The notes beneath the pieces are model-generated. The model saw nothing but the letters and a program-made list of their open reading frames with translations, searched no databases and was not told where the DNA came from. 64,000 bases of DNA from Bdellovibrio sp. 28-41-41 (lineage in GTDB: Bacteria > Bdellovibrionota > Bdellovibrionia > Bdellovibrionales > Bdellovibrionaceae). This document shows positions 13,222-60,150 of this stretch, piece by piece. Each line of letters begins with the position of its first letter. Positions within the stretch are counted from its first letter, which is position 1. Position numbers and translations under genes: made by a program. The DNA is taken from assembly GCA_002256935.1 (NCBI GenBank), contig NCGL01000004.1, positions 11,557 through 75,556 of the forward strand, written 5' to 3'.

Positions 13222-13768
13222 AGGGCACCTCCTTTGTTATTGAATTTTAGTGACGTTGTCTCGGGCGGCAGGAGGCCGCCCTTGTAAGCGACATGAAAGT
13301 CGCAAGAGGGCGTAACAGCGCCGTCCGGTGCGGTCTTGCCGGAGGATCGTCGTCGGTCACGATGAGCCGGAGTCCTTTTCGCCATAGTAGAATACTTTGG
13401 CGTGTCCGAAACCGCGAACTCCGCAGGGGTTCGCACTGTTACTTCAAGACGCAGAACCGGAGGAAAAAAGTCTAACCACAAAACTTGCAAACGAAGAGCT
13501 ATATTTTCAATGATAGAATAGATTTCTTTTTTAGCATCAATCTTATTCAGACTTTTTCTTCCGGTTCTGCGTCTTGTTGTTTCTTTCTTTTTTCTCATTC
13601 CAATTTTTACTTCTTCAATTATTTTCCTAATTTTCTTCCCACCCAACCCCGACCCCTGGTTCCTGACCACCTTCAACCAACTCGTTGGGTGGGGGTGGTC
13701 AGGAAGGGCGCACGCCCAAGGGGGCGGGGTTGGGTGGGACGCAGCTAATTGATTTCGTTTTTGATTTT
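13222..13768. other. Structured non-coding region; candidate oriT and/or ncRNA
   Basis: There is no credible ORF here. The region holds multiple GC-rich hairpins, a 27/28-nt inverted repeat around a 75-bp AT-rich spacer, and a nested ~100-nt hairpin. Confidence 0.45.
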
Positions 13769-14581: not shown

Positions 14582-14862
14582 TTTGAACCTTCGGAATTTT
14601 GTATGAGAACAAAGTGGCCAAGTTCAATTTGGCCTGAATCCATTTTTGGTTCTATCCATTCCAATCGAAAATTGGCAAAATTTGTATCCTTTAGGCTTCC
14701 CGGAATTTTCATTTCGGAACCAACAGTGACTTGGCGGATTCGGACAATACAACTTTCGTCTGAATACAGAATGATCTTGGCTCCATCGGGATTTCCGCAT
14801 CTGGGTGTATGAGCACATGATACGAAAACCAAAAGACCGATTAAAATTAAGTAGTTTTTCAT
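14578..14862 (-). CDS. Small lipoprotein (VirB7-like or entry-exclusion candidate)
   Basis: It has a signal peptide and the lipobox LVFVSC. It overlaps both neighbouring genes. Confidence 0.55.
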   Translation of the reverse strand: MKNYLILIGLLVFVSCAHTPRCGNPDGAKIILYSDESCIVRIRQVTVGSEMKIPGSLKDTNFANFRLEWIEPKMDSGQIELGHFVLIQNSEGSK

Positions 14863-16571: not shown

Positions 16572-17523
16572 AATTGCCACCTCCTTCTTGTAATTTAAAT
16601 GAATCATTCAAAACGGCATCGCATTCGATACCGGTATTGAGTTCTATCCATTCTCGTTCTGTTTTTAGTTTTTCACCGTAGACTTGTGCGCGGCCCTGAG
16701 CGGTTGCAGCGACTGCGCCAAGCAAACCATTCTCAATGCCGCCCTTGGATCGACCGAGCATATCGGTTTCCATGCTTCCAGCAGCAAGGCCGCCGACAAA
16801 AGTTGTTATGACTTGTCCGGTAGTATTTTTAATACCATCTGAAAAAATTCGACCAACGACTCCTGGCTGGCCATCCTTACTTAATGCCAAAGCGGAAATT
16901 TTTTTGATCTGTCCGCTAGGTAGAGAAATTTGGCTAAATCGAATCGTGGCTCGATCAGATCCTTTTTGAAAACTGGCCTCACCATAGAACCTTGTCCCGG
17001 CTGGAATTTTCAAACCTGAATCAGACTCAGAGTTAAGAATTAACTCTGCCAGAACTGGTACAGGATCTTGTGAAACGACCACCTTATCTAGCATCCGCAA
17101 TGGAAGTCTGATCCCCGCTCTTAGCTCAGTTTTGGCGTTTCCACCTTTAGAGCCGATCACCATAGGTGCGTTGTAGTTGACTTGCGATGAGCCTGAAGTC
17201 GAAGGCAATGTCATTTTGGGAGATCCCCAAAGTGCTTCGGCGGGACCGTGAGTGTTCTTTGACTCTGCTCGGTCATTTGACGAAGTTGCATTTGCACTTT
17301 GATGGTCAATTTTCTCTGCAAATTCAACGGGCACTTCCGTTGGCATAATAAAGATAACTGCGATGAAAATGACTATCGTGATTCCGCCAAGAACTTTAAA
17401 TGCTTTAAAATTTACGTCTACTTTTTGACTCACCTCAGATTTTTTTAAAAATGAACCTGTTACTTTGGATAAAATATTTTTTATCCAAGTGAGACCAATT
17501 TTTAGATTATTCTTTATTTCCAT
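16564..17523 (-). CDS. VirB10/TrbI-like T4SS protein
   Basis: It has an N-terminal TM helix, a linker, and a C-terminal TrbI-like domain (GTRFYGEASF..RATIRFSQISLPSG..DGQPGVVG). Synteny supports the call. Confidence 0.7.
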   Translation of the reverse strand: MEIKNNLKIGLTWIKNILSKVTGSFLKKSEVSQKVDVNFKAFKVLGGITIVIFIAVIFIMPTEVPVEFAEKIDHQSANATSSNDRAESKNTHGPAEALWGSPKMTLPSTSGSSQVNYNAPMVIGSKGGNAKTELRAGIRLPLRMLDKVVVSQDPVPVLAELILNSESDSGLKIPAGTRFYGEASFQKGSDRATIRFSQISLPSGQIKKISALALSKDGQPGVVGRIFSDGIKNTTGQVITTFVGGLAAGSMETDMLGRSKGGIENGLLGAVAATAQGRAQVYGEKLKTEREWIELNTGIECDAVLNDSFKLQEGGGNYE

Positions 17524-18224
17524 ACTTGAACCTCCGAAAGAGTAATTGAAAGTGTTCTTTGGGATTTAAGTATCACGGTCAGAGGTCTCTTGGGAATGAG
17601 ATCAGATTTTGTTAGCGAGATTCCAATTAGGATAGCTTTTCCTTTGACGACCTTAAGATCAGAAAGAAAAAGTCCGTTGATGACCTTTGATTTGCCATCC
17701 TGAATTATTTCAATTTCTGAGGGCTTAATAGAAATTATTTTTATTGTCTCGGAGGAGAGTTTTGCATCAATAAGAATAAATCCCTCCCTAGAGTTTCCAA
17801 TTCTATCAATTGTGAGTTTCAAATCACCTGATTGCTGACTAACTCCGACCTTAAGCCATTTCGTTAAAGTAGCTGCTTGCTCAGAATTTTTAATATAGAC
17901 AATATAGTCGGCCACTCCTTGGGAAAGGGTAACGAGTCTTACGTTGTAACGACGCTTGTCAGTTACAAGATATAGATTTGTTTTAATCCCCATTCTAAGT
18001 GGTTTGATGGTCACGGCTCTATCCAAATATTCAATTTTGAATCCTGATTGGTCTCCAATGATTGCCGACTGAATTGTGTCTGGCAGTTGAATTATAGTTG
18101 CGATTCCAAGGGCCGCTTTGACAGTTAGAATTTCGTCAATGTTAACAGTGACTTTTCGAACTTGTGCCTGCAAACTTAGCGATGAGAAAAACACAAATAG
18201 AAACCATAGAGTTATTCTAATCAT
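17514..18224 (-). CDS. VirB9/TrbG-like T4SS protein
   Basis: The ATG at 18224 forms an ATGA overlap. It has a signal peptide, is rich in beta-strand, and sits between the VirB8-like and VirB10-like genes. Confidence 0.55.
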   Translation of the reverse strand: MIRITLWFLFVFFSSLSLQAQVRKVTVNIDEILTVKAALGIATIIQLPDTIQSAIIGDQSGFKIEYLDRAVTIKPLRMGIKTNLYLVTDKRRYNVRLVTLSQGVADYIVYIKNSEQAATLTKWLKVGVSQQSGDLKLTIDRIGNSREGFILIDAKLSSETIKIISIKPSEIEIIQDGKSKVINGLFLSDLKVVKGKAILIGISLTKSDLIPKRPLTVILKSQRTLSITLSEVQVWK

Positions 18225-18811
18225 CGAATAGCCTCTTCGGTTTCTTTTGTAATGTAAACGCCCCAAGGGTTAATAATGGTCCGGTCGTCAATCGAGAATT
18301 GCAATGAAAGTCGCATTTCCGTGGCGGCTTTCAAATTGTCGAACTCAGTAATTCTATCGGCAAGAATAGTGACTTTCTTTTCCTTGAGATCGACTGAAAC
18401 TGATTTTGGATAAACCCGCTGCCGTACCTTTTTCTCTCTAACGAATTTGTAGGTTTCCTGCATTGATTTCTCAAAGGCAGATGCAAGACTGGGTAGGACA
18501 AAGAACTTTGCCTTTCCGATTTCTTCACTGACGGTTTTTTCATCCCATGAATAGCGATGCTTAATGTATTCTTTGACGGCAGATTCAACTTGAAGATCGG
18601 TGATCTTAGTTTCGATTTTTGAAACTTCGCCGCTGCCGTCAAGGGCAACCACAGTAGGTCCTTGTTTTACAAGAAATAGGACCAACAGAAGCATTAAAGT
18701 AACGATACCAAGGAGCACACTGCAAAGAAATTTTAGATTCAGATTTTCTTCGGCGAACTCTCGCATTGCTTTAGGAAACCGGCTTGTTTGTAGAACGATT
18801 TTGTTATTCAT
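18221..18811 (-). CDS. VirB8/TrbF-like T4SS protein
   Basis: A single N-terminal TM helix precedes a ~140-aa periplasmic domain. The call rests on synteny. Confidence 0.5.
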   Translation of the reverse strand: MNNKIVLQTSRFPKAMREFAEENLNLKFLCSVLLGIVTLMLLLVLFLVKQGPTVVALDGSGEVSKIETKITDLQVESAVKEYIKHRYSWDEKTVSEEIGKAKFFVLPSLASAFEKSMQETYKFVREKKVRQRVYPKSVSVDLKEKKVTILADRITEFDNLKAATEMRLSLQFSIDDRTIINPWGVYITKETEEAIR

Positions 18812-18825
18812 AAAGGCACCTCCTT

Positions 18826-19704
18826 TTACGACCCGTTGGGTCGTTTAAAATTGTTTTGAATGGATTGAATTTTTTGTCCAGCATAGGCTCGCGTATGCGA
18901 TAGAGCTTCGCGTGACACTTGGTGAATGGTCGCAATTTTCCCAGGCAAGGCAACCGCAGCCAAAGCAGCTGTTGTTCCGATTGTCTGCGCGGTTGCCTGA
19001 ACTCCTTCACCAATTAATGAACGCATAAGCATCGGCGTGAATAGCAGTGCGACGGCTATTACAAAGTTCATAACGATCAACGTGAGATAAGAGCCTTCGG
19101 TTTTATAAATGTTTCCAAATGATAGTGAGGTCAGCATCGCCGACATGATAGCCCACAGAATTTTCCAGCAAGCGACTTCGATAAGCCCGCGATATAAGTT
19201 CGCAGTTATTCCGGCAGTTCTGGGAAAAATATAGCAAATAATCATCAACGGAGCGCAAACCGAGAGCAAAACCCAATAGAAATAATAAAGCGCAATTGTG
19301 ATATAGCGAGCGATTAACAAAAGAACAAAGCTACCAAAGCTCAAGATAGCCATGAAGAGATCATCAAATTTTAGCAACAGTACATTCTTAGCTACGGCAT
19401 AGCTTTGTGATTTCTCCTGGGCCATTCGCATGAAAGTTTCAAGCCCTGACATATTATCAATTTTTAGAGCGATGCCATCACAGACATCCAAGATCAAATT
19501 TGAAACTTCAGGAAATGAAGCCAAAAGTAGTGCTGCCACAAAACTTCTTTTGATCACATCGGGATAGTTCGCATCTCCTGATTTTAAATATCCAAAGACA
19601 ATGGAAAATAAAATCGCAATGGGCATCATCAAGTAGAACAGTTGGCTTAAACCCTGATATAGATCCCTTACTAGCGTTCCGAGGACTTCAAGATTTGGAA
19701 TCAT
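18826..19704 (-). CDS. VirB6/TrbL-like polytopic membrane protein
   Basis: It has about six hydrophobic helices and follows the TrbJ-like gene. Confidence 0.65.
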   Translation of the reverse strand: MIPNLEVLGTLVRDLYQGLSQLFYLMMPIAILFSIVFGYLKSGDANYPDVIKRSFVAALLLASFPEVSNLILDVCDGIALKIDNMSGLETFMRMAQEKSQSYAVAKNVLLLKFDDLFMAILSFGSFVLLLIARYITIALYYFYWVLLSVCAPLMIICYIFPRTAGITANLYRGLIEVACWKILWAIMSAMLTSLSFGNIYKTEGSYLTLIVMNFVIAVALLFTPMLMRSLIGEGVQATAQTIGTTAALAAVALPGKIATIHQVSREALSHTRAYAGQKIQSIQNNFKRPNGS

Positions 19705-20402
19705 TTGTCACCTCCAATCCTTGGGAGCTTGGTTTCACGGGGAAGAGAGCCAAAGCCATGCGATAGGCTTTGATAATTTTCTTTAAAATTTTGAGTTGCG
19801 ATTTTTTCTTTGCGATTATCATAAGCCATATTTTGGCCCATAATTTTGAGCATCTGACTTTGTATTCTTAGTAACTGGGTCATTACTCCGATGAGAACAC
19901 CTAGTGCTTGGTTTTGTAATTTTCCGGCCCCTTGCGGGCTTACGACTTGGGCATGAAACAGGATGCGATCTTTTTCGCGGTCAACTTGGTCGGCATAGTC
20001 ATATAGATTTCGATTCATCGAAATGACTTCTGCGACGCTTTGATCCTGTGATTTCATTAAGTCTTGATCCATGCCGGTTGGAACAGGACCATAAACAGCT
20101 TGCAATGCTCGAAGGACGGCATCAGCATTTCGTAAATCACCATAGACGCCGGGATTAAATTTTGGATTGATGATCCTGATTAAATCAAGACCGCTTCTAA
20201 CCCCTGCATTTATGTCACGCATCAGATCTAACGAATCTTTGCCGGTCTCAAGAACACTCTTAAGAGTTATGACGGTTTGAATCGCTTGGGCAAGAATTTG
20301 GGTGAGAATGACAACATCACCACCAAAGAGATCCGCTTTCGCAGATCTGGAACTAAAAAACAAAGTGATTGATAATATAGCAGCAATTAGTTTTTTTCTC
20401 AT
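19701..20402 (-). CDS. VirB5/TrbJ-like secreted protein
   Basis: It has a signal peptide and a helical, Q/L-rich body. It lies between VirB4 and VirB6. Confidence 0.5.
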   Translation of the reverse strand: MRKKLIAAILSITLFFSSRSAKADLFGGDVVILTQILAQAIQTVITLKSVLETGKDSLDLMRDINAGVRSGLDLIRIINPKFNPGVYGDLRNADAVLRALQAVYGPVPTGMDQDLMKSQDQSVAEVISMNRNLYDYADQVDREKDRILFHAQVVSPQGAGKLQNQALGVLIGVMTQLLRIQSQMLKIMGQNMAYDNRKEKIATQNFKENYQSLSHGFGSLPRETKLPRIGGDK

Positions 20403-22861
20403 GTGGCCGCCTTCATGGAAGAAACACCAAAGGGTGCGATCGCGGCCGCTTTTGTAAGAGCGGCTTCTAGTGTAAGTCCGCCGCTTCTGAATTTTTCCAG
20501 AAGCTGGTTGTCTCTGGCGTCTGAAGTCGAAATCCAGTATTCAAGTGGCGACGGCTGGATTCTGATAACCTGCCGACTTTCGCCCTCCATTAGAAAACCT
20601 TCACTAAAAACTCCCTTCCTTTGCTCTAAACTTTGAATCAGTCGAAGCTCTTGGCTGTTGAGTTTCAGTGAATCCCGCAGAACTTTGGTGTCACCTTTTT
20701 GAAGCATTACAAGTTTGGTTGCTGTATTGTTCAAAATGGCTGGCCCCATGCCGCTGGCGATAATTTCTTCCACGCCTTGAGTGATAAATGAAATTCCGCT
20801 TCCTGTTTTTCTAAAACAGCGAGCGGCATACTCCATAAACGAACTAGCCGCAGGGCTTTTTAATAGCTCCCAGCATTCGTCGAGAAGAACCCGCTTTGGA
20901 ACTGTTCGATCTGTTTCGACTTGCTCCAAAATGAAGTTTGTCAAAATCAGGATCATAACCGACTGAAGATCTGGGTATTGCGATAAGCCTTTAAGATCAA
21001 ATGCAACGATAGTTCTGTCACCCTCAATTTTTCCATGCCCATCGAGCAGACGGCCGTAGGGTGTGGCTCCAATCCACGGAAAAAGCAATTTTCCAATTCG
21101 TCGCAACGAATCCTCGGAGCTCGCCAGGCAATATTTTGCTAGATCCGACAATACGGGGGAGCCAGGAGTAGCAGCGCTTCTTGAGATTTCAAATACGTTA
21201 GTGAGCGCCTCTTCAAGCTGAACACGTTCAAAACGAGTCAACTTCTCGCCCTGGTCCACCACCATTTGTTCAATGATACTGACTATACCTTTAAGCTTTT
21301 CGCCAGAGGGAGCCAATTTTGGATCGCGCAATTCAAAAGGATTTATTCGATAAAGGCCCATCAGATTGATCTCAAAATATTGACCGTCTAGAAGCTCGGT
21401 CATTTTTTTATAAGACCCACCGATGTCGATTATGAAAACACGAGTGCCTCTGGCAATCTGCTGAAGCATGAGGAAATTATTGGCAAAACTTTTTCCTGAT
21501 CCACTGGACCCCGTAATAAGGGCATTAAAATTATTTAGCCGAGACGAATAGGGATTCAGTGAGTAGAGAGTTCCAAGCCTTGTCTTAATCAAACAAAATG
21601 GTTTTTCATCACCTGTTGCCGCACCATAAAGCGGAAAGAAATCGACCAGATTGTTTGTTTTTACTCTTTTTGTTCGCACCATCGCCATTGGCGCTAGAGG
21701 CAAATTGGCCTTGAATGTCTTCCAACTGGCAACAGTTTCCTGCATTCCCTCAGAGCCACTCAAGGTTTTAAACCGCGATAGAACTTCTTTCGTGTGAAGA
21801 TTAAGGCGACGCTCGCCCTCAACACTTGCCGTCTCTCTTAGTATAATTATTAGCTCCGCCCGAAAAACTCGTTGCCCGGTTTCAATAATTTCACGGAGTA
21901 AGTCCGTGGTTTGTGAAAGCCGTGATTCACTTTCTAGATCTGAAACCCGATTGTTCGACGAACTCGAAAGGGAGTGCGCCATTCGACGTTTGGATTCAAG
22001 ATTCTTAATTTCTTTGGACTGGTCAGGAATATTAAATGAAAATAGAAGCTCATACTTAAATGGCAATGTCTGAAATCCACTCATCATTCCGGCAAATGTC
22101 ATTTCGGGCAATGTCTTCAGGGTGATAACTCTTGTCTTGAGTTGATCAAGGACAAAGTCTTGTTGATCTAAAACTAAGTCGGCAAATACAAGTTGTGCGC
22201 GAGGTGAGATGTCATCAAGATCAGGATCTCGTTTAGAAACTTTGGGAGGAGTTACACTTTCTGATCGTTTCGGGTTAAAATGCCTATAGAGAATTTCAAC
22301 AAAATCCTCCTTGGTGCAATCATTTGTTACAAATCCCATTGATGAAAGTGTTGCCTTCGCGGTTTCAAGCGCCTGACTAAGACTCTGAAGTCGGTCTTCG
22401 AATTGTTTTTCAAATTCAGCAGCAAATTTTTTTGTCGATGAAAAAGAGAACGAGCCCGGCTTTTCAGCTCCAGTGGTTTTTAAAAAAAATAAAAGCCTAG
22501 GTCTAAATAGTAATCCTGATTTCACTTGTTCGGCTAGGCTCGCAGCCCTAGCACAATCAAGATTTTTCAAAAACAGGTTTTCAGTCGTTACAAGTTTTGT
22601 ATGAGCAGCAAGAACTTCATCAACGTCATTTTCAATCTTAACAAGGAACTGGGAAGTCATACCTTCAGGTAGTGAGTTTGCAAAAGCACGCAGTCCCATT
22701 GTGAGTTGATTGATTCTTGATTCATCAAAACATTCGATATCTAAAGGCAGAATTTCAAAGCCAGATGAGACTGAGCCGTCAAACAACAAGACGTGAGGAA
22801 ATGGAGTGGACTCAATTTCCCAAAAGGGAAGACTTTCAGCAAGTGAATGTATAGAATTCAT
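20399..22861 (-). CDS. VirB4/TrbE-family T4SS ATPase
   Basis: An 820-aa protein with Walker A ITGSSGSGKSF and Walker B RVLLDECWELL. Confidence 0.9.
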   Translation of the reverse strand: MNSIHSLAESLPFWEIESTPFPHVLLFDGSVSSGFEILPLDIECFDESRINQLTMGLRAFANSLPEGMTSQFLVKIENDVDEVLAAHTKLVTTENLFLKNLDCARAASLAEQVKSGLLFRPRLLFFLKTTGAEKPGSFSFSSTKKFAAEFEKQFEDRLQSLSQALETAKATLSSMGFVTNDCTKEDFVEILYRHFNPKRSESVTPPKVSKRDPDLDDISPRAQLVFADLVLDQQDFVLDQLKTRVITLKTLPEMTFAGMMSGFQTLPFKYELLFSFNIPDQSKEIKNLESKRRMAHSLSSSSNNRVSDLESESRLSQTTDLLREIIETGQRVFRAELIIILRETASVEGERRLNLHTKEVLSRFKTLSGSEGMQETVASWKTFKANLPLAPMAMVRTKRVKTNNLVDFFPLYGAATGDEKPFCLIKTRLGTLYSLNPYSSRLNNFNALITGSSGSGKSFANNFLMLQQIARGTRVFIIDIGGSYKKMTELLDGQYFEINLMGLYRINPFELRDPKLAPSGEKLKGIVSIIEQMVVDQGEKLTRFERVQLEEALTNVFEISRSAATPGSPVLSDLAKYCLASSEDSLRRIGKLLFPWIGATPYGRLLDGHGKIEGDRTIVAFDLKGLSQYPDLQSVMILILTNFILEQVETDRTVPKRVLLDECWELLKSPAASSFMEYAARCFRKTGSGISFITQGVEEIIASGMGPAILNNTATKLVMLQKGDTKVLRDSLKLNSQELRLIQSLEQRKGVFSEGFLMEGESRQVIRIQPSPLEYWISTSDARDNQLLEKFRSGGLTLEAALTKAAAIAPFGVSSMKAAT

Positions 22862-23181
22862 AGGGCACCGCCATTTGTGAAGCGTCGGTATTTAGAATCA
22901 GAAGCATTGGCAGAAGTGACCGTTGGAGAAATAAGGTGTTCAAAATAGTGTTGAAGAAATTGATCAGGTTTCCCTCGTTTGAAAATGAATAGAATGAGAC
23001 CAATACCAATGCTTGTGCCAAACACCATGGGAATTTTCATAGAAGTAGATCCAAAAATTAAATTTTGGACAGATAGATTTAAAAGCAGAACAAGAACATC
23101 AGAGAGTTCAAGTCCTAGAATTTTGTTTTTAGTTTCCAGCGTTCGAGGAACTGTTGAGGTCAATAATAATTCTTCACTCAT
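22858..23181 (-). CDS. VirB3/TrbD-like small membrane protein
   Basis: I chose the internal ATG at 23181, which forms a TAATG overlap with the pilin gene. It has two hydrophobic segments and sits just upstream of VirB4. Confidence 0.5.
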   Translation of the reverse strand: MSEELLLTSTVPRTLETKNKILGLELSDVLVLLLNLSVQNLIFGSTSMKIPMVFGTSIGIGLILFIFKRGKPDQFLQHYFEHLISPTVTSANASDSKYRRFTNGGAL

Positions 23182-23465
23182 TAGTGAACTGCCTGTGAAA
23201 TGAAGTCTACAATCGCCCCGGCCCCAAAGCCGATAATAGATCCTAAAATGGCGTACCACATATGGGTTTTGGCCCGCTCATTGCCACTCATCAGACTGAA
23301 CGCTGCCCATGCGATTGCAATAATTGAAAGTGTGGGCAATATAACCCGAGTCAGTTTTGTTTGAATGCCGAGCAGTGAAGACTCAACATTGGCGAGTCCC
23401 AACTCTGGCACCATAATTAGTGCAATTGATAATACTAAAATTCCAAATAACATTTTTTTGTGTTT
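23181..23465 (-). CDS. VirB2/TrbC-like pilin
   Basis: The ATG at 23465 follows an AAGGAGGTG SD. A long signal peptide is followed by two hydrophobic helices, about 94 aa in total. Confidence 0.55.
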   Translation of the reverse strand, partial: KHKKMLFGILVLSIALIMVPELGLANVESSLLGIQTKLTRVILPTLSIIAIAWAAFSLMSGNERAKTHMWYAILGSIIGFGAGAIVDFISQAVH

Positions 23466-23490
23466 CATAGAGTCACCTCCTTTGTTTGTG

Positions 23491-23904
23491 TTAAGATGCA
23501 ATCATGTCCTCCAAAGCTTCTTTCTTGTCTGGAAACAGACAGATGAAAATGTTTTCGGTGAAAAGTTGAATTCGCAGCGAAATAAAGCAGCCGACAAGCC
23601 TCCCTTCGCCGATACGATTCCAGTTTGTACGAATTTCGTCGCTTGCCATTTTGTATTCCTCAAGGCTGAGAACAACGTATTTTGTATCGTCTTTGTCGTC
23701 GGGTACGACAAAGTATTGTTGTCCTGGGTAAACGAAGATTTTTAATTTGAACTTCTTTGATCCGATTTTTAGAAAAGCGATGCCAACGCTTTCTCCTTCG
23801 ATGATTTCACCACTCGAGGTTACTTCGCCAAGGTAAACTCCAAAACGGTCGGTTTTTCTAATAGGTACAACATTATTATTTGGAAAGTCCGAATTGTAGC
23901 TCAT
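23491..23904 (-). CDS. Hypothetical protein (137 aa from MSYNSDF)
   Basis: The ORF is in an operon context and overlaps the upstream gene. No motif was recognised. Confidence 0.4.
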   Translation of the reverse strand: MSYNSDFPNNNVVPIRKTDRFGVYLGEVTSSGEIIEGESVGIAFLKIGSKKFKLKIFVYPGQQYFVVPDDKDDTKYVVLSLEEYKMASDEIRTNWNRIGEGRLVGCFISLRIQLFTENIFICLFPDKKEALEDMIAS

Positions 23905-24152
23905 GCTGCAAACCTTTCTAGTTCGAACATCTCTAGAACATCTTCGGTCCAACCACAGTCACAACAAGTCAAATAGCCACTGTGAAAATCAGTAAGGCCG
24001 CCGCATTCTGGGCAAATTTCGCCGTCAACGGGCGGGCCTGATTTTTTGAAGTTTAGAAATCGCCGTTTAAAACCTGGTTCAATCCGTTTTTCAAAACCAT
24101 GTTTATCATCCACTCGGTAGATTGGATTTTTATCTTTTAATGTTCTCGACAT
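23901..24152 (-). CDS. Zinc-ribbon mini-protein
   Basis: It carries CPECGG..CCDCGW. The ATG at 24152 follows a GGAGG SD. It is paralogous to 24389-24661. Confidence 0.5.
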   Translation of the reverse strand: MSRTLKDKNPIYRVDDKHGFEKRIEPGFKRRFLNFKKSGPPVDGEICPECGGLTDFHSGYLTCCDCGWTEDVLEMFELERFAA

Positions 24153-24364
24153 TAATAGTTCCTCCATTGTTGCTGCCGACTAAATGAAGTGGGGGCTCGT
24201 TTTGATTCCAGTCTTTCCCATGTCTCTAAATTTAAATCTGGTTGTGATAGAGCCAATGCAAGACGGCTCCAAAAATTGAGCTTCGTTGGGTTAGCTGTGA
24301 TTGCCTCTGCCAGCCTTAAGCTCACACAATTTTCACTTTGATTTATAATTGTTTTTGCGTTCAT
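24152..24364 (-). CDS. Hypothetical small protein
   Basis: A 70-aa ORF with a GGAGGTG SD that is translationally coupled downstream. Confidence 0.4.
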   Translation of the reverse strand: MNAKTIINQSENCVSLRLAEAITANPTKLNFWSRLALALSQPDLNLETWERLESKRAPTSFSRQQQWRNY

Positions 24365-24388
24365 AATTTCACCTCCTTCGGTTATTGG

Positions 24389-24661
24389 TTATGCAATCTT
24401 TATTGCTGATTCTGAAAAAAATTCTTGATCTGCGTTTTCGTGATCGTTATTTTGTTTTTGTGTTAGCGATTCAAAAGTGACTTGATCGTCAAACTGCTGC
24501 CTGACTGCTTGGAATGGATTGTCGAGCTGGCCGAGCTGAACCAGCAGCAAACTATTATCCCAATCACAATCACAGCACATTTGGTCTAAGCCCATCGTAA
24601 CGATTTCGACGGACCCGCATTTTGGGCACTTTTCTTTTTTATGTTGTTTCGTTATATTCAT
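24389..24661 (-). CDS. Zinc-ribbon mini-protein (first gene of the T4SS operon)
   Basis: It carries CPKCGS..CCDCDW and has an acidic tail. The SD is AGGGGGA. Confidence 0.5.
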   Translation of the reverse strand: MNITKQHKKEKCPKCGSVEIVTMGLDQMCCDCDWDNSLLLVQLGQLDNPFQAVRQQFDDQVTFESLTQKQNNDHENADQEFFSESAIKIA

Positions 24662-24718: not shown

Positions 24719-24735
24719 AGCAGGAATGGGTCCGA
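24719..24735 (-). promoter_or_regulatory. Candidate sigma54 (-24/-12) promoter for the T4SS operon
   Basis: The minus strand reads TCGGACCCATTCCTGCT. This gives GG-N10-GC spacing with a CTGCT -12 element, about 60 bp upstream of the first ATG. Confidence 0.3.
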
Positions 24736-24823
24736 ATGTTTTTTCAGATGAAAAAATGAAACTAAGTCGTTGAAAGAATTTAGAAAATATAGAAAAAGTG
24801 AATTGAGGAGTTATTTTTAAAAT

Positions 24824-24839
24824 TGGCGGATACCCGCCA
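24824..24839. promoter_or_regulatory. 16-bp palindrome TGGCGG-ATAC-CCGCCA (candidate enhancer/UAS, alternatively a weak terminator hairpin)
   Basis: The half-sites are perfectly inverted. This is one of three copies in the window. Confidence 0.4.
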
Positions 24840-24892: not shown

Positions 24893-24908
24893 TGGCGGTA
24901 TGCCGCCA
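24893..24908. promoter_or_regulatory. 16-bp palindrome TGGCGG-TATG-CCGCCA
   Basis: This is the second copy. It lies 69 bp from the first and 75 bp downstream of the kinase stop codon. Confidence 0.4.
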
Positions 24909-24982: not shown

Positions 24983-26539
24983 CTAGCGAACAATGATTGG
25001 TAACGTAGAGATTTGACTTTTGGGGATCAAAAAGACTCCGTCTCTTGAGCATCGGGAGCGAATATCAAATTGATCAAAATTTCCAGTGACAAGAAACTTT
25101 TGTGACTCAGTCGGCAGGTTTGACAGCAGATCTAAGCCATTTATTTCCTCATTTAAATCAAAGTCCAAAAGAAAAATGTATCGTTCAGGGTTTTCAGAAA
25201 ATTTGTTCTTTAGACTCAGTAGCTCACGCGAAGAAGAAAATAATTTGGTATTTGCGGAAAGAGCCACTTCGCGCATCTTTTCATTCCATAGGTGACGAGC
25301 TGCCAGTTGGTCATCTAGAATTACAATCACCGAGTCCTGATTCAGTTTTAACCTCGGGACATACCATTTTGCTCGCTCTTTTATTGGAAGAGTGATTGTG
25401 ACGAGAGTTTCAAAATCTTTTTGTGAGTTGACTCCAATTTTTCCGCCCCAAGATTCAATCCACTGCTTTGCATGATACAAACCAATACCAGTTCCGCCTG
25501 CTTTACCGGAAGTAAAACCATTTTCAAAGACCTTGTTTATAATTTCAGATGCAATCCCGCGACCGCCATCTTTTATCGAGATGACAATCTCTCCGCCATT
25601 ATCGACAGCGGAAAGCTTAATCAGTCCGCCAGAAGTTGTTGCCTCGATTGAGTTATTTACGATATTCCCAAGCAGGGCTCTTAACTCAAATGGGACATGA
25701 GTTGCTTCTGCCGAAACAATAGAGTCATCGATATCAGATTCAAATTTCAAATATGAAGGTATCGACAACGCAATTTCTCGCACGGCGGAAACCAAGGAAT
25801 CATAAATTTCTACAGAATTGTTGGCTGAAGCAGAATCAGACTTTTTGTCTTCATCAAGAGAGGAAATTAAACTCTTTATTTGACCGATAGTCGAGATCAA
25901 AAGTTCCTTGTCGGCTTTTACTGAGTCTGGCAAGCGAGTTGGAATCCTCATGAGCGCAGCAAGTGGGGTTCTTAAATTATGGCGAATTTGCCGAGCGAGT
26001 TCAGCCTTTAATAATCCCTTTTCTGCACCTAGATCGTTTTCCAATTGCTCCAGGATTCGCTTTTTCATGTATCTAGTTTGAGGAATTGAAACCAGATTCA
26101 AAACGATCCATACTAAAAGTGCGTAAGGGATTAATCGAAGGCGACTGTATTCAAAAATGATTTCATCGGGACCTATCGAGCTAAGTTTATCAATAGTCGG
26201 AAATGTCACTTTCTCTTTAGTCAGAGATCTCCAAAAAGAACCATCAGTGAAATACTCAGCATTCGGAGGAAGCGAAAAGGACCGAGCTGTATTTGGCGAC
26301 CGATACCAAATAACTTCAAATTTATCGAGCCGTGCCTCTTGCAATATTAAACCGACTTCTCGAAAGTCACCAATTTCAACCATTCTAGAAATAAACTTGG
26401 TACTTTGTTCTGCTACTGATTGCATATGTAAAGTATTGGCGATCATTGATATGCCTAAAATAATAAAAAGGCCGATGGTCGAAAAAACCATTTGTTTCTG
26501 CTCAAACTGTTTGATTCGGTTTGGAAAAGATTCTACCAT
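24983..26539 (-). CDS. Membrane hybrid sensor histidine kinase
   Basis: Two TM helices flank a ~110-aa periplasmic loop. The H-box is RHNLRTPL and the HATPase G-boxes are DGGRGI and GGTGIGLY. The C-terminal domain is receiver-like (ILDD..LLDFDL). Confidence 0.85.
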   Translation of the reverse strand: MVESFPNRIKQFEQKQMVFSTIGLFIILGISMIANTLHMQSVAEQSTKFISRMVEIGDFREVGLILQEARLDKFEVIWYRSPNTARSFSLPPNAEYFTDGSFWRSLTKEKVTFPTIDKLSSIGPDEIIFEYSRLRLIPYALLVWIVLNLVSIPQTRYMKKRILEQLENDLGAEKGLLKAELARQIRHNLRTPLAALMRIPTRLPDSVKADKELLISTIGQIKSLISSLDEDKKSDSASANNSVEIYDSLVSAVREIALSIPSYLKFESDIDDSIVSAEATHVPFELRALLGNIVNNSIEATTSGGLIKLSAVDNGGEIVISIKDGGRGIASEIINKVFENGFTSGKAGGTGIGLYHAKQWIESWGGKIGVNSQKDFETLVTITLPIKERAKWYVPRLKLNQDSVIVILDDQLAARHLWNEKMREVALSANTKLFSSSRELLSLKNKFSENPERYIFLLDFDLNEEINGLDLLSNLPTESQKFLVTGNFDQFDIRSRCSRDGVFLIPKSQISTLPIIVR

Positions 26540-27369
26540 AAATGAACCTCTAATCCCTTAACCCGATAGCCAACAGGAGTAATTGGGCAGTTTTTAAACT
26601 CATAGAAATCATCAAGGTCAATTTCAGTCCGCTCAAGCTCAGGAATTGGGATTGATAATTCGGTGTCATTTTTTCCAAGCAATGGAATAATTTTAGATAG
26701 GAATTCTGTTCCCATGTGAGCGGGATTTTTAAAACTATTGTCAGAGTTAGTCGATAAAGAGCTTTGAGTAGAATGATACCAAGCAAAGTTAGCTAAGGCT
26801 TCTCGAAAAGATTTAGTGACACTCTCTTCTAAATTGTCTGTTAGCGCAAAGCCTAGAATATCAAACGAATTATTCATGACAATCTGGCAAACAATCCCAA
26901 AATAGGGTGCAGATGCGGCCATCGCGTAGAACGATACATTTACATCCGGCATTCTTTTTAGAAACTCAGCGAACTCAGATTTGGAATTCGACGAGGCTAA
27001 ATTCATATAGATTTTTTTGAACGAAACTTGATCCTTTAAATGAGAAAAAATAAAATATCGCTCCAGTGCTTCGCAATAGGCATGATTGTCCGCACCGTTT
27101 CGTCCGCCAACTGCAAAACCTAAAAAAGATTTCTGAGTCCTATAGAAAATCAATCGCTCAATGGCTTCGGAGACTGATTTTTCCAAAGCCAGTACGCGAT
27201 CTAAATCTATACCTCTGCCTTCGGCTATTTTTTCGCCAAAAGTGATTTTAGTCGCGAAATCGTATAGCCCTGGAAAGTAGGTAGTAGTCCAATCCAGCTC
27301 AGTAAATTTTGGATTGAATACCGATTTATTTGAATAAAGCCAATGGGCTAATTTATTTTGATTAGCCAT
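26533..27369 (-). CDS. Compact YcaO-like protein (278 aa, no signal peptide)
   Basis: The motifs resemble the YcaO ATP/Mg motifs: GRGIDLDRVLALEKSVSEAIERL, GFAVGGRNGADNHAYCEALERY and LGFALTDNLEESVTKSFREAL. Confidence 0.5.
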   Translation of the reverse strand: MANQNKLAHWLYSNKSVFNPKFTELDWTTTYFPGLYDFATKITFGEKIAEGRGIDLDRVLALEKSVSEAIERLIFYRTQKSFLGFAVGGRNGADNHAYCEALERYFIFSHLKDQVSFKKIYMNLASSNSKSEFAEFLKRMPDVNVSFYAMAASAPYFGIVCQIVMNNSFDILGFALTDNLEESVTKSFREALANFAWYHSTQSSLSTNSDNSFKNPAHMGTEFLSKIIPLLGKNDTELSIPIPELERTEIDLDDFYEFKNCPITPVGYRVKGLEVHLW

Positions 27370-28889
27370 AAAGGATTATTCGCATAGAGTTCAGAGAGTT
27401 CCATTCTCCAGGGTTTTCTAACAACGGCTGCATAGGGAGTTGCCATGAAAGGTACAATAATTGGCGCGGCAAGAGCTTCAAAATGAAGAGCCTTCAATTT
27501 TTGAACTCGAATATCTTTGTCGTTAGTCGCCATATAATTTGCTAACCATTTTTCACGCTCTGGCTTTTTTACCCCCAAAAATCCCGCGTTGAGTGAAAAG
27601 GAGATCAGGCCAATATCCTCCTTATAAGCTGTGTCTGTCGAGACGACAAAAGCGTGTGGCATATCTTCAGGTTTAAGATCTTTTTTTAAATCGGGCGGTC
27701 CAGATTCATGGTAACAATCAGCAAGTGGCAGTTCCTCCTTTATCGGCTTGGACCAAGCATCAAAAGAACCTCGCTTCATCAGACCGATTCGAACTGATTT
27801 TTTTGGCTCTACTTCGCCGTTAGATCTTATTTTAGCTAGTTTACTTTGCTGATCGTTAGTCAACCCACCTTCGCCGAGGCTTGGGAAAAACTCTTCTCTT
27901 TTTTCAAATCCAGATGAATCATGGTAAATTTTGAAAAATGCAGCCTTTACTCGTTCGCCAATGTATCGCCTTTCCGCAGCAGAGAATTCTCTTTCTCCGC
28001 GATCAGTGAATACCAGCGCCATCGTTCTAATCTTCATCGTTGTGTGGATACTAAAATCAGAGTCATGCTTCACAAACTTAATTAGTTCGTCGGCTTTCAC
28101 GGTGTCGATAGTGGTTAATAAATCGACTCGATTTTCAACTAAAGCTTTTAAGCTATCGCCCTGAACTTTTGGATTCATGCCAACAAGCTTAATGATGTCC
28201 GCTATGTCGGATGCAGCATGATAGTGATTGGGGTTAAGTTTCAGTTCTATATTCCCATTTCCGTCATCATCAGAAACAAAATAGGGTCCACTTGTTTCCT
28301 TAAGATTGATGATTGCCAGTGTTTGGGGGTCACAGCTTGTTCTTGGAATAATAGCAAAATCAATTGCAGCAAGCATGGGCAACAGAAATGGTTTTCTCTC
28401 TTTTGCATTTAAATAAACGTAGTTTCCCTCGCTTTTGATTCCTGGGCATTCATCCTCGACGGTTTTTAAAATATGTCCAGGACAAATAAGGTCTTTGAAA
28501 TTGCCGTGTGTGTTTCCTGATAAAACTAGAAGACGTTTCAAAGAAAACACCACATCCTGAGCCGTTATCAATACACCTGATGCAGTCTTTAGATTATCCC
28601 GGATCTTGAGCCTTAGTTCGTCGTTGATCCAATCGGCTTTTTCAGCAACCCCAGGCTGGATCGACCCTTTCGCGTCAATCTCAACCAGCGGTGAAAAAAC
28701 ATTTTCTAAAAAAATATATTCATAACCAAGACGTATATCAGTTGGTTCATAACTTAATGATTTCCTTTGTTCAGGAAAGGCGACTCGGAGAGTCCTATTG
28801 GTATTTAATTGCTTCATTGAAAGACCTCCGCCAGCCGTAAGTAAAAATAATATCCCAATTATAATTGAAAGTCGCTTTGAGACAACCAT
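27348..28889 (-). CDS. Family-5 (OppA/DppA-like) solute-binding protein, membrane-anchored or secreted
   Basis: It has an N-terminal hydrophobic anchor. An SBP_bac_5-like core follows (PLVEIDAKGSIQPGVAEKADWINDELRLKIRDNLKTASGVLITAQDVVFSLKR). Confidence 0.7.
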   Translation of the reverse strand: MVVSKRLSIIIGILFLLTAGGGLSMKQLNTNRTLRVAFPEQRKSLSYEPTDIRLGYEYIFLENVFSPLVEIDAKGSIQPGVAEKADWINDELRLKIRDNLKTASGVLITAQDVVFSLKRLLVLSGNTHGNFKDLICPGHILKTVEDECPGIKSEGNYVYLNAKERKPFLLPMLAAIDFAIIPRTSCDPQTLAIINLKETSGPYFVSDDDGNGNIELKLNPNHYHAASDIADIIKLVGMNPKVQGDSLKALVENRVDLLTTIDTVKADELIKFVKHDSDFSIHTTMKIRTMALVFTDRGEREFSAAERRYIGERVKAAFFKIYHDSSGFEKREEFFPSLGEGGLTNDQQSKLAKIRSNGEVEPKKSVRIGLMKRGSFDAWSKPIKEELPLADCYHESGPPDLKKDLKPEDMPHAFVVSTDTAYKEDIGLISFSLNAGFLGVKKPEREKWLANYMATNDKDIRVQKLKALHFEALAAPIIVPFMATPYAAVVRKPWRMELSELYANNPLWLIKIN

Positions 28890-28900
28890 AGTATGCCCCC

Positions 28901-29173
28901 CTACGCGCCGGCGTCAGGGCAAATAGACAACAATTTAACTCCACCTTTTTCAATCGCACCATTTTGGTTAAGTAAATCAAAAATATCCTGATCCAATTGA
29001 AGACATTGATTGAGTTCTACATTGATTACTTTTGTCTCAATGAGTGTTTGAATGGCCAAAGCAATTTTTAGCTTTTGAGCATAGGTAAGACCAGGCTTAC
29101 TTGTTGTCTGCGCAAAACCTTCATTTGCTGCTAGGAAGCTAGCGATAACAATTATTATAGTTAAATTTCTCAT
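28901..29173 (-). CDS. Small secreted protein (90 aa)
   Basis: It has a Sec-type signal (cleavage near GFA-Q), a helical body and two Cys residues, and ends ...LLSICPDAGA. An ATGA overlap links it to the regulator gene. Confidence 0.55.
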   Translation of the reverse strand: MRNLTIIIVIASFLAANEGFAQTTSKPGLTYAQKLKIALAIQTLIETKVINVELNQCLQLDQDIFDLLNQNGAIEKGGVKLLSICPDAGA

Positions 29174-30570
29174 AGTTCATCCCCCTCGATATGTTGTTTT
29201 GTTTCGATCCCATATTTTTTCATTTTGTCTCTTAATGTGCTTCGGCTGAAGCCCAATTGTCTTGCGGCTCCGGAAATGGATTTTGATTTTTGAAGAGCTT
29301 CAGTGATCAGAATTTTATCTTCATTCTCTCGCACCGCTTTTATTGAATTGATGTCAGATAATTTCTGAGTATCATTTGCCACATAAATTCTATCTTTAAG
29401 AATACTTAAATCTAAGTACTCGCCGACCGATGCACTGACCAAATGTTTAATACAATGCTCAAGCTCTCTTACATTTCCCTTCCAGTGCATTTTTTTGAAT
29501 TCTTCTACAGTAGCCTCGAGCAAAATTTTATTTTTACGTTCTTCTTGATTTGCTCTTTTTATGAAGATTTCTGCTAAATAGGGAATATCCTCTGGGCGTT
29601 CTCTTAGTGGTTTAAGATTGATTGGCAAAACATTTAGCCGATAAAAAAGGTCTTCCCGAAATTGTTTATTTGCAATCATGCTTTCGATGGGTGCATTTGT
29701 TGCAGCAATCAATCGAAAATCAATTTTTTTTGCGATGTTTGATCCTACGGGCATAATGGTTTTTTCTTGAAGCACCCGCAAGAGTGTCGCCTGAAGGTGC
29801 ATTGGCAGCTCACCAATTTCATCCAGGAAAATAGTGCCACCATTCGCCGCTTGAAAGAAACCAACTCGTGCGCGGTTCGCACCAGTGAACGCACCCTTTT
29901 CGTGTCCAAAAAGTTCTGACTCAATTAAAGTTTCTGGAATACTAGCACAGTTTACAGCTATAAACGGCATCAAGGCTCGTGGAGAATGTTTGTGGATGCC
30001 GCGAGCTACTTTTTCTTTTCCAGTTCCATTTTCTCCGCGAATGAGAACTGTTTCTTTCGAGGATGCAAAACGCAATATTAGATTGGCTGTGTCGGCCAAG
30101 GCATTAGAAATGCCGACCATATCAACACTCTCAATGAGTTTTCTATTTGCGTTCTCAGTAAATAAGGCAACGGGCTTTGTTCGCTTTTCAACTTCACGAC
30201 ATAGACGATGAATAATACCTAGTAGCTTGGCATTGGCTGTGTCTTTTTCAACAAAAAATACCGCCCCTGAGTCGAGAGACTGATTGTGGGCTTCAACGGA
30301 ATCGTCGCCAGAAAAACCTAGAATTGCTAGATTGGGCTCTCGTGCCTTAATTTCTTTTATAACTTCAGGGCCATTCATCCCAGGCATGTGAAAATCAATC
30401 ATTCCCAAAGAAAACTGATTAATTCCCTGCCTGACAATGGCGATGGCTTCTTCGCCGCTCTCAACGGCGCGAACAGAGAACCCTTCGTCTTTAAGAAAAG
30501 CCACCATAGAGCTTCTGATATTTGGATCATCATCGACAAGTAGAATATTGTGTTGCAATCGTACCCCCAA
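29170..30570 (-). CDS. Sigma54-dependent response regulator (NtrC family EBP). A TTG start is possible at 30570 or 30558.
   Basis: A receiver domain (ILLVDDD..) is followed by an AAA+ domain with GENGTGKE and ESELFGHEKGAFTGA. The C-terminal Fis-type HTH is ISGAARQLGFSRSTLRDKMKKYGI. Confidence 0.9.
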   Translation of the reverse strand: MGVRLQHNILLVDDDPNIRSSMVAFLKDEGFSVRAVESGEEAIAIVRQGINQFSLGMIDFHMPGMNGPEVIKEIKAREPNLAILGFSGDDSVEAHNQSLDSGAVFFVEKDTANAKLLGIIHRLCREVEKRTKPVALFTENANRKLIESVDMVGISNALADTANLILRFASSKETVLIRGENGTGKEKVARGIHKHSPRALMPFIAVNCASIPETLIESELFGHEKGAFTGANRARVGFFQAANGGTIFLDEIGELPMHLQATLLRVLQEKTIMPVGSNIAKKIDFRLIAATNAPIESMIANKQFREDLFYRLNVLPINLKPLRERPEDIPYLAEIFIKRANQEERKNKILLEATVEEFKKMHWKGNVRELEHCIKHLVSASVGEYLDLSILKDRIYVANDTQKLSDINSIKAVRENEDKILITEALQKSKSISGAARQLGFSRSTLRDKMKKYGIETKQHIEGDEL

Positions 30571-30580
30571 TATATCCCCT

Positions 30581-30598
30581 AATCAAGTATGGTGCCAC
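30581..30598 (-). promoter_or_regulatory. Candidate sigma54-like promoter of the signalling operon
   Basis: The minus strand reads TGGCAC-CATAC-TTGAT. The -24 element is perfect, but the -12 element has GA instead of GC. It lies 10-25 nt upstream of the candidate start codons. Confidence 0.25.
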
Positions 30599-30776: not shown

Positions 30777-30792
30777 TGGCGGAAACCCGCCA
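30777..30792. promoter_or_regulatory. 16-bp palindrome TGGCGG-AAAC-CCGCCA
   Basis: This third copy lies about 200 bp upstream of the regulator gene and about 180 bp downstream of the recD2-like stop codon. Confidence 0.4.
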
Positions 30793-33542: not shown

Positions 33543-33651
33543 TCCTAGAGCGGGTTTCCATCAATCATTTATTTTAATTCGACACTTTTGGCAATTTAAA
33601 GATGGATAATGCTAATATTGAAATAGGACAGAATTAGTCTAAGCTGCGCGT

Positions 33652-60094: not shown

Positions 60095-60150
60095 CTTTTC
60101 GTCTCTCGTTTGCGTCTCTGTTTTATGTCTCTGGGATGGAAAAATAAAAA

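Follow-up and report, generated by a model that had tools for sequence, protein, structure and literature searches.

A conserved cassette of mini-YcaO, OppA-like binding protein and hybrid kinase beside a type IV secretion operon in Bdellovibrio: a candidate peptide-signalling circuit with sigma-54-type output

The five genes and their relatives

The window analysed here, a stretch of 64,000 nucleotides from the metagenome-assembled genome Bdellovibrio sp. 28-41-41, carries five tightly packed open reading frames (ORFs), all on the minus strand, just upstream of an operon for a type IV secretion system (T4SS). They encode, in order, an NtrC-type sigma-54 enhancer-binding protein (EBP), a small secreted protein (p90), an OppA-like solute-binding protein (SBP), a cytoplasmic protein of 278 residues and a hybrid histidine kinase. 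The EBP and p90 genes overlap by 4 nt, 11 nt separate p90 from the SBP gene, and the next two junctions are overlaps of 22 nt and 7 nt. No additional ORF among the window's ORFs lies between the genes, and a spacer measured at 321 bp leads from the kinase gene to the first gene of the T4SS operon (ATG 24661). A first-pass annotation had described this packing and a distance of about 320 bp; all of its ORFs lie where it put them, and the sole correction concerns the start codon of the EBP gene. The features are collected in Table 1.

Table 1. Genes and candidate regulatory sites of the cassette and the adjoining T4SS operon (positions in the window)
Feature	Position	Strand	Basis or remark
NtrC-type sigma-54 enhancer-binding response regulator (receiver, AAA+ with GAFTGA, Fis-type helix-turn-helix)	29170..30558	-	Pfam, homologue comparison
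p90, 90 aa, secreted, with an invariant Cys near its C-terminus (..LLSICPDAGA); candidate substrate of the YcaO and signal precursor	28901..29173	-	conservation
Family-5 (OppA/MppA/NikA-like) periplasmic solute-binding protein, without transporter partners	27348..28889	-	PF00496, PDB matches
Mini-YcaO, 278 aa, cytoplasmic; motifs EKSxSEAIER and HAxxEALERY	26533..27369	-	AF2 and Foldseek, profile bridging
Two-transmembrane hybrid sensor histidine kinase (periplasmic loop of ~95 aa, H-box, HATPase_c, C-terminal receiver)	24983..26539	-	Pfam, conservation
T4SS operon: four small genes, VirB2, VirB3-like, VirB4, VirB6, VirB8, VirB9, VirB10, VirD4, three unknowns	12811..24661	-	Pfam
Palindrome upstream of the EBP gene, TGGCGGGTTTCCGCCA (putative autoregulatory upstream activating sequence)	30777..30792	.	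~215-220 bp before EBP gene
Sigma-54-type -24/-12 element of the module operon, TGGCACCATACTTGAT	30582..30597	-	one mismatch to TGGCAC-N5-TTGCW
Distal palindrome, T4SS operon upstream region, TGGCGGCATACCGCCA	24893..24908	.	exact match; putative activator site
Proximal palindrome, T4SS operon, ~105 nt upstream of the -24 element, TGGCGGGTATCCGCCA	24824..24839	.	putative activator site
IHF-like site between palindromes and T4SS promoter, TTTCAACGACTTA	24763..24775	-	WATCAR-N4-TTR
Sigma-54-type -24/-12 element of the T4SS operon, beginning 73 nt before ATG 24661, CGGACCCATTCCTGCT	24719..24734	-	GG-N10-GC

The EBP has a receiver (Response_reg, PF00072) in which the DDD/D/K residues can be read off the sequence, a Sigma54_activat domain (PF00158, E=6e-68) with its GAFTGA motif at residue 226, an AAA_lid_14 (PF25601) and a Fis-type helix-turn-helix (HTH; HTH_8, PF02954). 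With the acceptor Asp, the GAFTGA-bearing AAA+ domain and the HTH all present, it belongs to the NtrC-type activators. Comparison with 19 homologues placed the true start of the ORF, listed as 29170-30570, at TTG 30558 rather than at 30570 or 30598, which gives the N-terminus MQHNILLVDD and leaves a GGGGG ribosome-binding site 5 nt upstream.

The kinase is anchored by transmembrane segments at residues 15-39 and 134-154, matches HATPase_c in Pfam at E=8e-19 and has a conserved H-box His186. Its match to Pfam Response_reg is weak (E=0.02), but the receiver residues DD409/410, D458, T484 and K507 are conserved in 24 homologues, so that it is a genuine hybrid; its NCBIfam matches include a VirA-like kinase model (E=3.7e-15). 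Elsewhere in the window (37645-39296, minus strand) a stand-alone CheY-like receiver of 117 aa (PF00072, E=2e-22) overlaps by 4 nt the gene of a 433-aa protein whose family was not recognised, and a homologue of the latter lies upstream of the module in one related locus (L017). The CheY-like receiver may be an extra phosphorelay partner for the kinase, which has no histidine phosphotransfer (HPt) domain beside it.

The SBP begins with a hydrophobic segment (residues 1-26) and matches PF00496 at E=1e-7 over its N-terminal part only, its 31.9 bits falling just under the 32.4-bit cut-off. In the PDB, the structures of OppA and MppA match it at E of about 1e-4, and its homologues in L002, L003, L005 and L006 have precomputed PF00496 matches. 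No permease or ATPase transporter genes were found near it, either among the ORFs of the window or in related loci. The SBP gene always stands directly upstream of the gene for the 278-residue protein, with the 22-nt overlap.

The fourth protein is 100% identical to a protein of the Bdellovibrio sp. 28-41-41 record. No significant match was found in Pfam, NCBIfam or PDB sequences, whether it was searched singly or as a profile of 15 sequences, and against the Pfam YcaO family (PF02624) it scored 12.1 bits (E=0.12), short of the 25.7-bit gathering cut-off. An AlphaFold2 (AF2) model built from the 15-sequence alignment, having pLDDT 85 and pTM 0.84, was matched by Foldseek to the PDB with YcaO proteins in all of the top 30 places, the best being 6ci7 (E=4e-8, TMq 0.62), followed by 4q85, 6peu and 4v1v; the matches comprise archaeal thioamide-forming YcaOs, E. 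coli YcaO and, lower down, the LynD/TruD heterocyclases. Alignment by hhalign of the window's clade with a clade of longer relatives (~320 aa) gave a probability of 100% and E=4.7e-48, and members of the longer clade match both PF02624 at E<=0.01 (31/31, best 2e-16) and TIGR03604, the SagD-type cyclodehydratase (also 31/31). Because the model matches only YcaO structures and the profiles bridge to SagD-type YcaOs, the YcaO-like assignment is taken as correct, although no sequence library makes it; for the remaining genes as well, Pfam, PDB and conservation data agree with the identities first given to them.

With 278 aa the mini-YcaO is short, the solved YcaOs that it matches having 360 aa or more, and it is placed in the cytoplasm because it has no hydrophobic segments. 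Residues E68, E71, R72, E100, E103 and R104 are invariant in the 15 sequences, and a K/R186-x3-E190 motif is conserved. These motifs, which we take to correspond to E75/E78/R79, E199/E202/R203 and R286/E290 of E. coli YcaO (EcYcaO), are read as a probable ATP/Mg site. E202 of EcYcaO is an ATP-site residue (PMC13063428).

Related loci were gathered by means of the mini-YcaO, five through exact-protein look-up and 21 from species-representative genomes, all in Bdellovibrionota. The five-gene order is kept in every one of them at YcaO identities of 32-45%. T4SS genes are linked in 14 of the 20 informative loci (the window counted), on the same strand in 12 and divergently in two (L009, L013), and in 11 related loci the same T4SS gene order follows the module. 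The suggestion that this is a conserved module linked to T4SS genes was thus borne out by comparison of gene neighbourhoods. Four genomes have two modules each (L008/L022, L010/L027, L020/L025 and L023/L024).

Beyond this clade, whose elements are plausibly integrative and conjugative (ICE; see below), a HMMER search with the family profile returned 682 representative clusters with a threshold of E<=1e-3, of which 474 also pass E<=1e-10, the best 150 matches being nearly all 250-340 aa long. The surroundings of the longer clade (30 metagenome loci and four look-ups) were scanned with hidden Markov models made from the ICE-clade proteins. The SBP gene is directly upstream of the YcaO gene in most loci with upstream sequence, and the kinase gene directly downstream in most with downstream sequence; an EBP is present in few, T4SS genes in 2/34, and several loci lie among housekeeping genes (tpi-pgk-gap, tatC). 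One of the T4SS-linked loci, L036, retains a full-length YcaO. As to variants, in L033 the YcaO gene is preceded by a tandem pair of SBP genes, and L059 has two convergent SBP-YcaO pairs. The core of small protein, SBP, mini-YcaO and kinase is therefore far wider than the ICE clade, and it is mostly chromosomal, without T4SS or EBP. It follows that the module is not intrinsically a conjugation device and that the ICE clade represents one wiring of it; what had been proposed as a device for the control of conjugation keeps that linkage within the ICE clade and loses it in the core cassette that is widespread in Bdellovibrionota.

Regulatory DNA of the two operons

A 16-bp palindrome, TGGCGG-N4-CCGCCA, is present in two copies before the T4SS operon and in one before the EBP gene. 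The exact core GGCGG-N4-CCGCC occurs three times in the 64 kb (24825-24838, 24894-24907, 30778-30791), where shuffled sequences gave 0.39 even with one mismatch allowed. In both regions a -24/-12 sigma-54 element follows downstream of the palindromes, which stand at about -120 and about -210.

This layout recurs in the related loci. On the EBP side, one or two palindromic sites are found ~215 bp before the EBP start in 15 related loci, and an xGGCAC-N5-TTG[CT] element 30-45 nt before that start in 16/20. On the T4SS side there are two or three copies ~70 bp apart (pairs 69-71 bp), the last of them 105-110 nt before a -24/-12 element of the form GG-N10-GC. The latter is at the same offset in L001, L002 and L003, and is found also upstream of the T4SS operon in L027. 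In the two divergent loci the palindromes are between the divergent operons or beside the T4SS operon. A scan of the whole window for TGGCAC-N5-TTGCW returned 39 matches against 28.9 expected from shuffles, which is barely above, and the promoter assignments are for this reason based on position and conservation.

Three classes of palindrome could be distinguished: class A, TGGCGG/CCGCCA; class B, TTAACGG-N4-CCGTTAA (L005, L008, L022); and class C, TGGCTA-N4-TAGCCA (L014). Class B and C loci have GG-N10-GC elements of their own, and an IHF-like WATCAR-N4-TTR with 0-1 mismatch is 62-63 nt from the proximal palindrome in 9/11 class-A loci. Where both regions are available (L014, L022), the two promoters share one class, and the class tracks the HTH recognition helix of the EBP, which reads SRST[LV]R[DE]K in class A, STF[CR]DK in class B and SRGALRAK in class C. 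It is chiefly this co-variation that speaks for the palindromes as EBP binding sites. A sigma-54 promoter architecture of -24 GG/-12 GC, upstream sites and an IHF-like site thus appears to be present and conserved, and the sigma-54 control of the T4SS that had been conjectured acquires candidate sites before the T4SS operon that co-vary with the EBP HTH. The predicted operator, IHF site and promoter make this regulatory half directly testable.

Palindromes near gene ends may also be intrinsic terminators of the upstream genes, in which case the adjacency to the T4SS would be incidental. The scan does score the palindrome upstream of the EBP gene as terminator-like, with a stem followed by CCTTTT, and both T4SS-side palindromes are downstream of the kinase stop codon. 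However, the stems are just 6 bp and terminator-like matches in the region are not above shuffles, while the sequence, copy number (2-3), ~70-bp spacing and distance to the IHF-like and -24/-12 elements are kept at 32-45% protein identity. Classes B and C, being AT-rich, would terminate poorly, the sites in L009 lie between divergent operons, and the co-variation with the HTH also speaks against termination. On the comparative evidence of conserved layout, class switch and HTH co-variation the terminator explanation, which we consider hardly credible, was rejected.

The small protein and a possible self-made signal

p90 begins with an n/h/c signal-peptide pattern and an A-x-A site, judged by eye to be kept in 23 loci. 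Its signal peptide, helical region and Cys85 are conserved across these loci; Cys85 is invariant, and the other Cys of the protein is absent from three. In the window the mature protein would be ~65 aa with one modifiable Cys, and in the window's clade the tail follows the pattern ..S-I-C-[PIVA]-[DG]... A homologue search with p90 returned only three near-identical proteins, and a PHROGs search with ten unassigned proteins of the element, p90 included, gave no match.

More was learned from the distant cassettes, in which a small ORF stands directly before the SBP gene in 17/17 loci with sufficient upstream DNA. Each of these small ORFs encodes a signal peptide, of Sec or lipoprotein type, together with a helical segment that contains L..L...G[ILV][ILV], and ends in a short, hypervariable tail rich in Cys, Gly, Ser and Thr, having a Cys within about the last 12 residues in 14/17. 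Examples are ..GAGTSCIGSCIQP, ..DGGCSDTTGGGCNSSQP, ..AAGSCSATGACCT, ..TTRCIGSGRCVIQDN and ..PGGSECGTCS, and L060 has two tandem small-protein paralogues ending ..SSGKCEGI and ..TTGRCETI. Tails of this kind resemble the core regions of precursors on which a Cys-directed YcaO would act. The first-pass annotation had favoured an external signal in which the mini-protein had no part; judging by the wider family, it is rather the small secreted protein that seems to be the YcaO substrate, and the signal of the module is probably self-made.

Within the ICE clade, the class B and C modules (L005, L008, L014, L022) have a longer small secreted protein of 136-160 aa, in which the N-terminal helical/Cys unit is internally duplicated and a single C-terminal Cys tail is retained. 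In genomes with two modules, the p90 tails differ in all three pairs from which both proteins were recovered (none for L020): SICVGANGGITK vs SICVVPDSK in L008/L022, TICIGASN vs SICADGSN in L010/L027, and TVCIQGG.. vs TVCIDPMRTK in L023/L024. L010 and L027 also have different HTH recognition helices and different operators, L010 being of class A while no palindrome was recognised in L027; in the other pairs the palindrome class is the same within the pair. Such differences in tail and operator between co-resident modules would fit insulated, pherotype-like channels.

Together these findings can be assembled into an element-borne, agr-like self-signalling circuit that would gate expression of the conjugative T4SS through sigma-54, a proposal that we judge to be evenly balanced between right and wrong. 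p90 would be made in the cytoplasm, where the mini-YcaO, with ATP, would modify the backbone at its C-terminal Cys, most simply to a thiazoline, and the modified protein would be exported by Sec. Its tail, possibly clipped, would be bound by the OppA-like SBP in the periplasm or outside the cell, and the SBP would dock on the periplasmic loop of the kinase (~95 residues) and shift the kinase/phosphatase balance towards the EBP; binding in the periplasm with modulation of the kinase is proposed because no permease or ATPase genes are nearby. The phosphorylatable EBP would then bind the 16-bp palindromes and, aided by an IHF-type bend, activate two sigma-54 promoters, one driving the T4SS operon and the other the module's own operon, with positive feedback as the outcome. 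As far as sequence goes, the peptide could report either donor density (switch on) or the presence of element-carrying cells (switch off). For the output half of the circuit, from the EBP and its palindromes through the IHF site to the two sigma-54 promoters and the positive feedback, position, statistics, conservation and co-variation give good support. The input half (p90, YcaO, SBP, kinase) is inferred, and is backed by the YcaO fold and SagD-type relatives of the enzyme, by the invariant Cys85 and the Cys-bearing tails of the distant cassettes, by the near-universal association of the small-protein, SBP, YcaO and kinase genes, by the precedent of MbnE, an OppA-like SBP that binds methanobactin, a ribosomal peptide modified at Cys (PMC7558416), and by the ability of YcaOs to work on whole proteins (PMC13063428, PMC5589413). 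A broader version, in which Bdellovibrionota would hold a large and hitherto undescribed family of cassettes with a YcaO-modified, Sec-exported Cys tail read by SBP and kinase, the ICE clade gating its T4SS via sigma-54 and diversified tails and operator/HTH classes preventing cross-talk between co-resident elements, is possible, and we are slightly more inclined to doubt it than to accept it.

The SBP allows a different reading of the input, in which it would detect an outside compound such as a prey oligopeptide, a muropeptide or a metal chelate and report it to the kinase in the manner of ChvE-VirA or TorT-TorS. p90 and YcaO would then be accessory, for example as a modified periplasmic co-receptor or pseudo-ligand that sets a threshold, and the sigma-54 output would be unchanged. 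The nearest solved relatives of the SBP are OppA, MppA (murein peptide) and NikA-type proteins, the absence of transporter genes fits a signalling SBP, p90 has a conserved helical body and not a tail alone, and Bdellovibrio lives amid the cell-wall and peptide debris of its prey. Nevertheless, an exogenous ligand gives no reason why nearly all cassettes should have the gene of a cytoplasmic YcaO inserted, with overlaps that are conserved, between those of the SBP and the kinase, and it leaves unexplained the hypervariable Cys-rich tails and tandem small proteins that are typical of precursor peptides; we hold it to be unlikely.

The target of the YcaO might also be a protein other than p90. 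YcaOs are able to act on whole, folded proteins, as with uL16 and McrA (PMC13063428, PMC5589413), and here the enzyme could thioamidate or otherwise modify the SBP (before its export), the kinase or the EBP, or could be a non-catalytic ATP-binding partner that relays a cytoplasmic cue to the kinase. The SBP/YcaO 22-nt and YcaO/kinase 7-nt overlaps, which suggest coupled synthesis, would suit such a role, and a terminal PHP[LF] segment is wanting in the ICE-clade YcaO, as a non-catalytic protein might allow. Against this, the invariance of the Glu/Arg residues in the probable ATP/Mg site does not suit a dead enzyme, a T4SS-linked locus (L036) keeps the full-length form, and the Cys-tailed small protein is always present. 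Taken together, we find these possibilities quite improbable.

Precursor-like tails, and relatives of SagD type that belong to toxin-making clusters for thiazole/oxazole-modified microcins (TOMM), could in turn point to a bacteriocin-type cluster with autoinduction, p90 and YcaO yielding an antimicrobial azoline peptide, the SBP, kinase and EBP serving as a producer-side regulator like NisK/NisR for nisin, and the T4SS link being secondary. Genes for immunity, export, a protease or a dehydrogenase are absent from the module, mature p90 would measure ~65 aa with its single modifiable Cys, and activator-type sites are found on the T4SS promoter, all of which make this account very improbable.

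Several observations weigh against the proposed self-signalling circuit itself. For the enzyme, the YcaO of the window's clade ends ~44 alignment columns short of its longer relatives and is without their terminal PHP[LF] (..N..PHP[LF]), a region that matters for azoline-forming YcaOs, and the domains of the five ORFs include no E1-like/RRE partner, FMN dehydrogenase, leader protease or exporter. For the precursor, a Sec signal peptide on a cytoplasmically modified protein is unusual, two distant precursors (L029, L051) are without any Cys (in L051 the YcaO is split as well), and an AF2 model of p90 from three sequences had pLDDT 47 and was unusable. No HPt domain was found in the module, and phosphotransfer to the EBP might involve the kinase's own receiver, which would act as modulator or sink like that of VirA, might go directly from His to the EBP, or might use an HPt encoded elsewhere. 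On the output side, the palindromes are putative EBP sites, the -24 element before the window's T4SS operon departs from TGGCAC-N5-TTGCW at four positions (GG and GC being retained), and in L009, L011 and L013 no clear GG was seen at the T4SS -24 position, so that the element could not be placed. Finally, in six informative loci (L006, L008, L010, L012, L016, L021) no T4SS gene was found within the available flank.

Among known systems, staphylococcal agr, in which AgrB modifies the precursor AgrD, AgrC is the kinase and AgrA the regulator, appears closest in logic. The comparison, which draws on established knowledge of agr, is one of an autoregulated operon for a ribosomal precursor, a modifier of a Cys in its C-terminal region, a membrane kinase and a response regulator; a candidate gene set of this kind, with a putative autoregulatory palindrome and promoter, is present in the module, and the variable signal region is reminiscent of agr pherotypes. 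The parts, however, are not homologous: the modifier here is a YcaO and not the AgrB peptidase, the precursor has a Sec signal and a mature length of ~65 aa, there is a separate OppA-like receptor, the regulator is a sigma-54 activator, and the host is Gram-negative.

In topology the module resembles the ChvE-VirA-VirG system of the Agrobacterium vir T4SS, where a binding protein, in a role other than transport, modulates a two-transmembrane, receiver-bearing kinase and the regulator activates T4SS genes; ChvE, though, binds sugar, VirG works with sigma-70 as an activator of OmpR type, plants supply the signals, and no YcaO or precursor takes part. Systems of AioX-AioS-AioR type (SBP, kinase and sigma-54 EBP; also TorT-TorS and LuxP-LuxQ) likewise rely on a periplasmic SBP as the subunit that recognises the ligand for a kinase whose phosphorylation target is an NtrC-type activator, but with small inorganic or organic ligands, SBPs of other families and no enzyme or precursor gene in the operon. 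The biology is nearer to peptide-controlled conjugation in Firmicutes (pCF10 PrgZ/PrgX, ICEBs1 RapI-PhrI, pLS20 Rap-Phr), in which element-encoded secreted peptides decide the expression of transfer genes and PrgZ is a binder of the OppA family. Those peptides are unmodified, are imported by Opp and act on cytoplasmic regulators of RRNPP type, whereas here there is no importer and sensing would occur at the membrane through kinase and sigma-54.

The enzyme shares with TOMM/SagBCD clusters and other YcaO systems the YcaO fold, what are probably the Glu/Arg ATP-site motifs and, for its relatives, TIGR03604 SagD as nearest model, together with a neighbouring gene for a product with a Cys/Ser/Thr/Gly-rich C-terminus (p90 itself has one invariant C-terminal Cys, and the distant tails are richer). 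It differs in that the module has no E1-like/RRE partner, dehydrogenase, protease, exporter or terminal PHP[LF], in that the YcaO is part of a two-component operon, and in that the putative precursor is Sec-exported. MbnE is an OppA/AppA-related periplasmic protein whose ribosomal peptide has Cys residues converted to heterocycle/thioamide groups (PMC7558416), but it serves uptake of a copper chelator and not kinase signalling, and the modifying enzymes MbnBC are not YcaOs. The closest kin are thus agr in logic, ChvE-VirA-VirG and AioX-AioS-AioR in topology, Firmicutes peptide conjugation in biology and SagD-like YcaO in the enzyme, and the module is a member of none of them.

The literature searched describes neither a YcaO that belongs to a cassette of two-component or SBP type nor the control of a conjugative T4SS by sigma-54 and an EBP, in keeping with the earlier suggestion of a new signalling architecture. 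To our knowledge the latter kind of control has no well-studied case, and we know of no earlier YcaO-made cell-cell (or self) signal, of which this would be the first if the proposal is true. There is a substantial chance that the module represents a new class of peptide signal. Were the circuit to hold, YcaO-modified exported peptides would be a new chemical class in bacterial signalling, orphan mini-YcaO genes (the 474 clusters at E<=1e-10), missed or mislabelled by annotation pipelines, would gain a function, and there would be examples in Gram-negatives of SBP-assisted kinase sensing of a self-made modified peptide and of a conjugative T4SS under sigma-54/EBP control. It would also offer a handle on the transfer decisions of mobile elements in predatory bacteria, whose horizontal gene transfer has received little attention.

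The putative mobile element and further genes of the window

The T4SS genes are followed by a large serine recombinase (10509-12380, minus strand) that abuts tRNA-Val; the 3' end of its ORF overlaps the entire tRNA-Val gene (10503-10578, plus strand) on the opposite strand. With this integrase, the mating-pair genes VirB2/4/6/8/9/10 and the coupling protein VirD4 all present, the locus is plausibly an ICE. Among the ORFs scanned, none showed a relaxase domain, and a search for att sites found no repeat of the tRNA-Val region elsewhere in the window, so that the far (right-hand) end of the element is undefined. The description of the module as ICE-borne thus stands with respect to integrase, T4SS and VirD4, and was not matched by a relaxase in those ORFs or by att repeats in the window.

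Four small conserved genes (23491-24661, minus strand) open the T4SS operon ahead of VirB2. Two of them (24389-24661 and 23901-24167) encode zinc-ribbon proteins with paired CxxC motifs, KCPKCG..CCDCDW and ICPECGG..CCDCGW, which have no Pfam or PHROG match, yet recur in related loci as conserved proteins. Next to the module on its upstream side (30969-34494, minus strand) are genes for a RecD2-type helicase of 857 aa and a tyrosine recombinase. Farther along, a type III polyketide synthase with chalcone/stilbene synthase domains is encoded next to a SAM methyltransferase (41109-43403, minus strand) and a Fic-domain protein at 43925-45184, and the bacterial small SRP RNA (Rfam RF00169, 59.8 bits) at 60148-60246 on the minus strand is an ordinary chromosomal marker.

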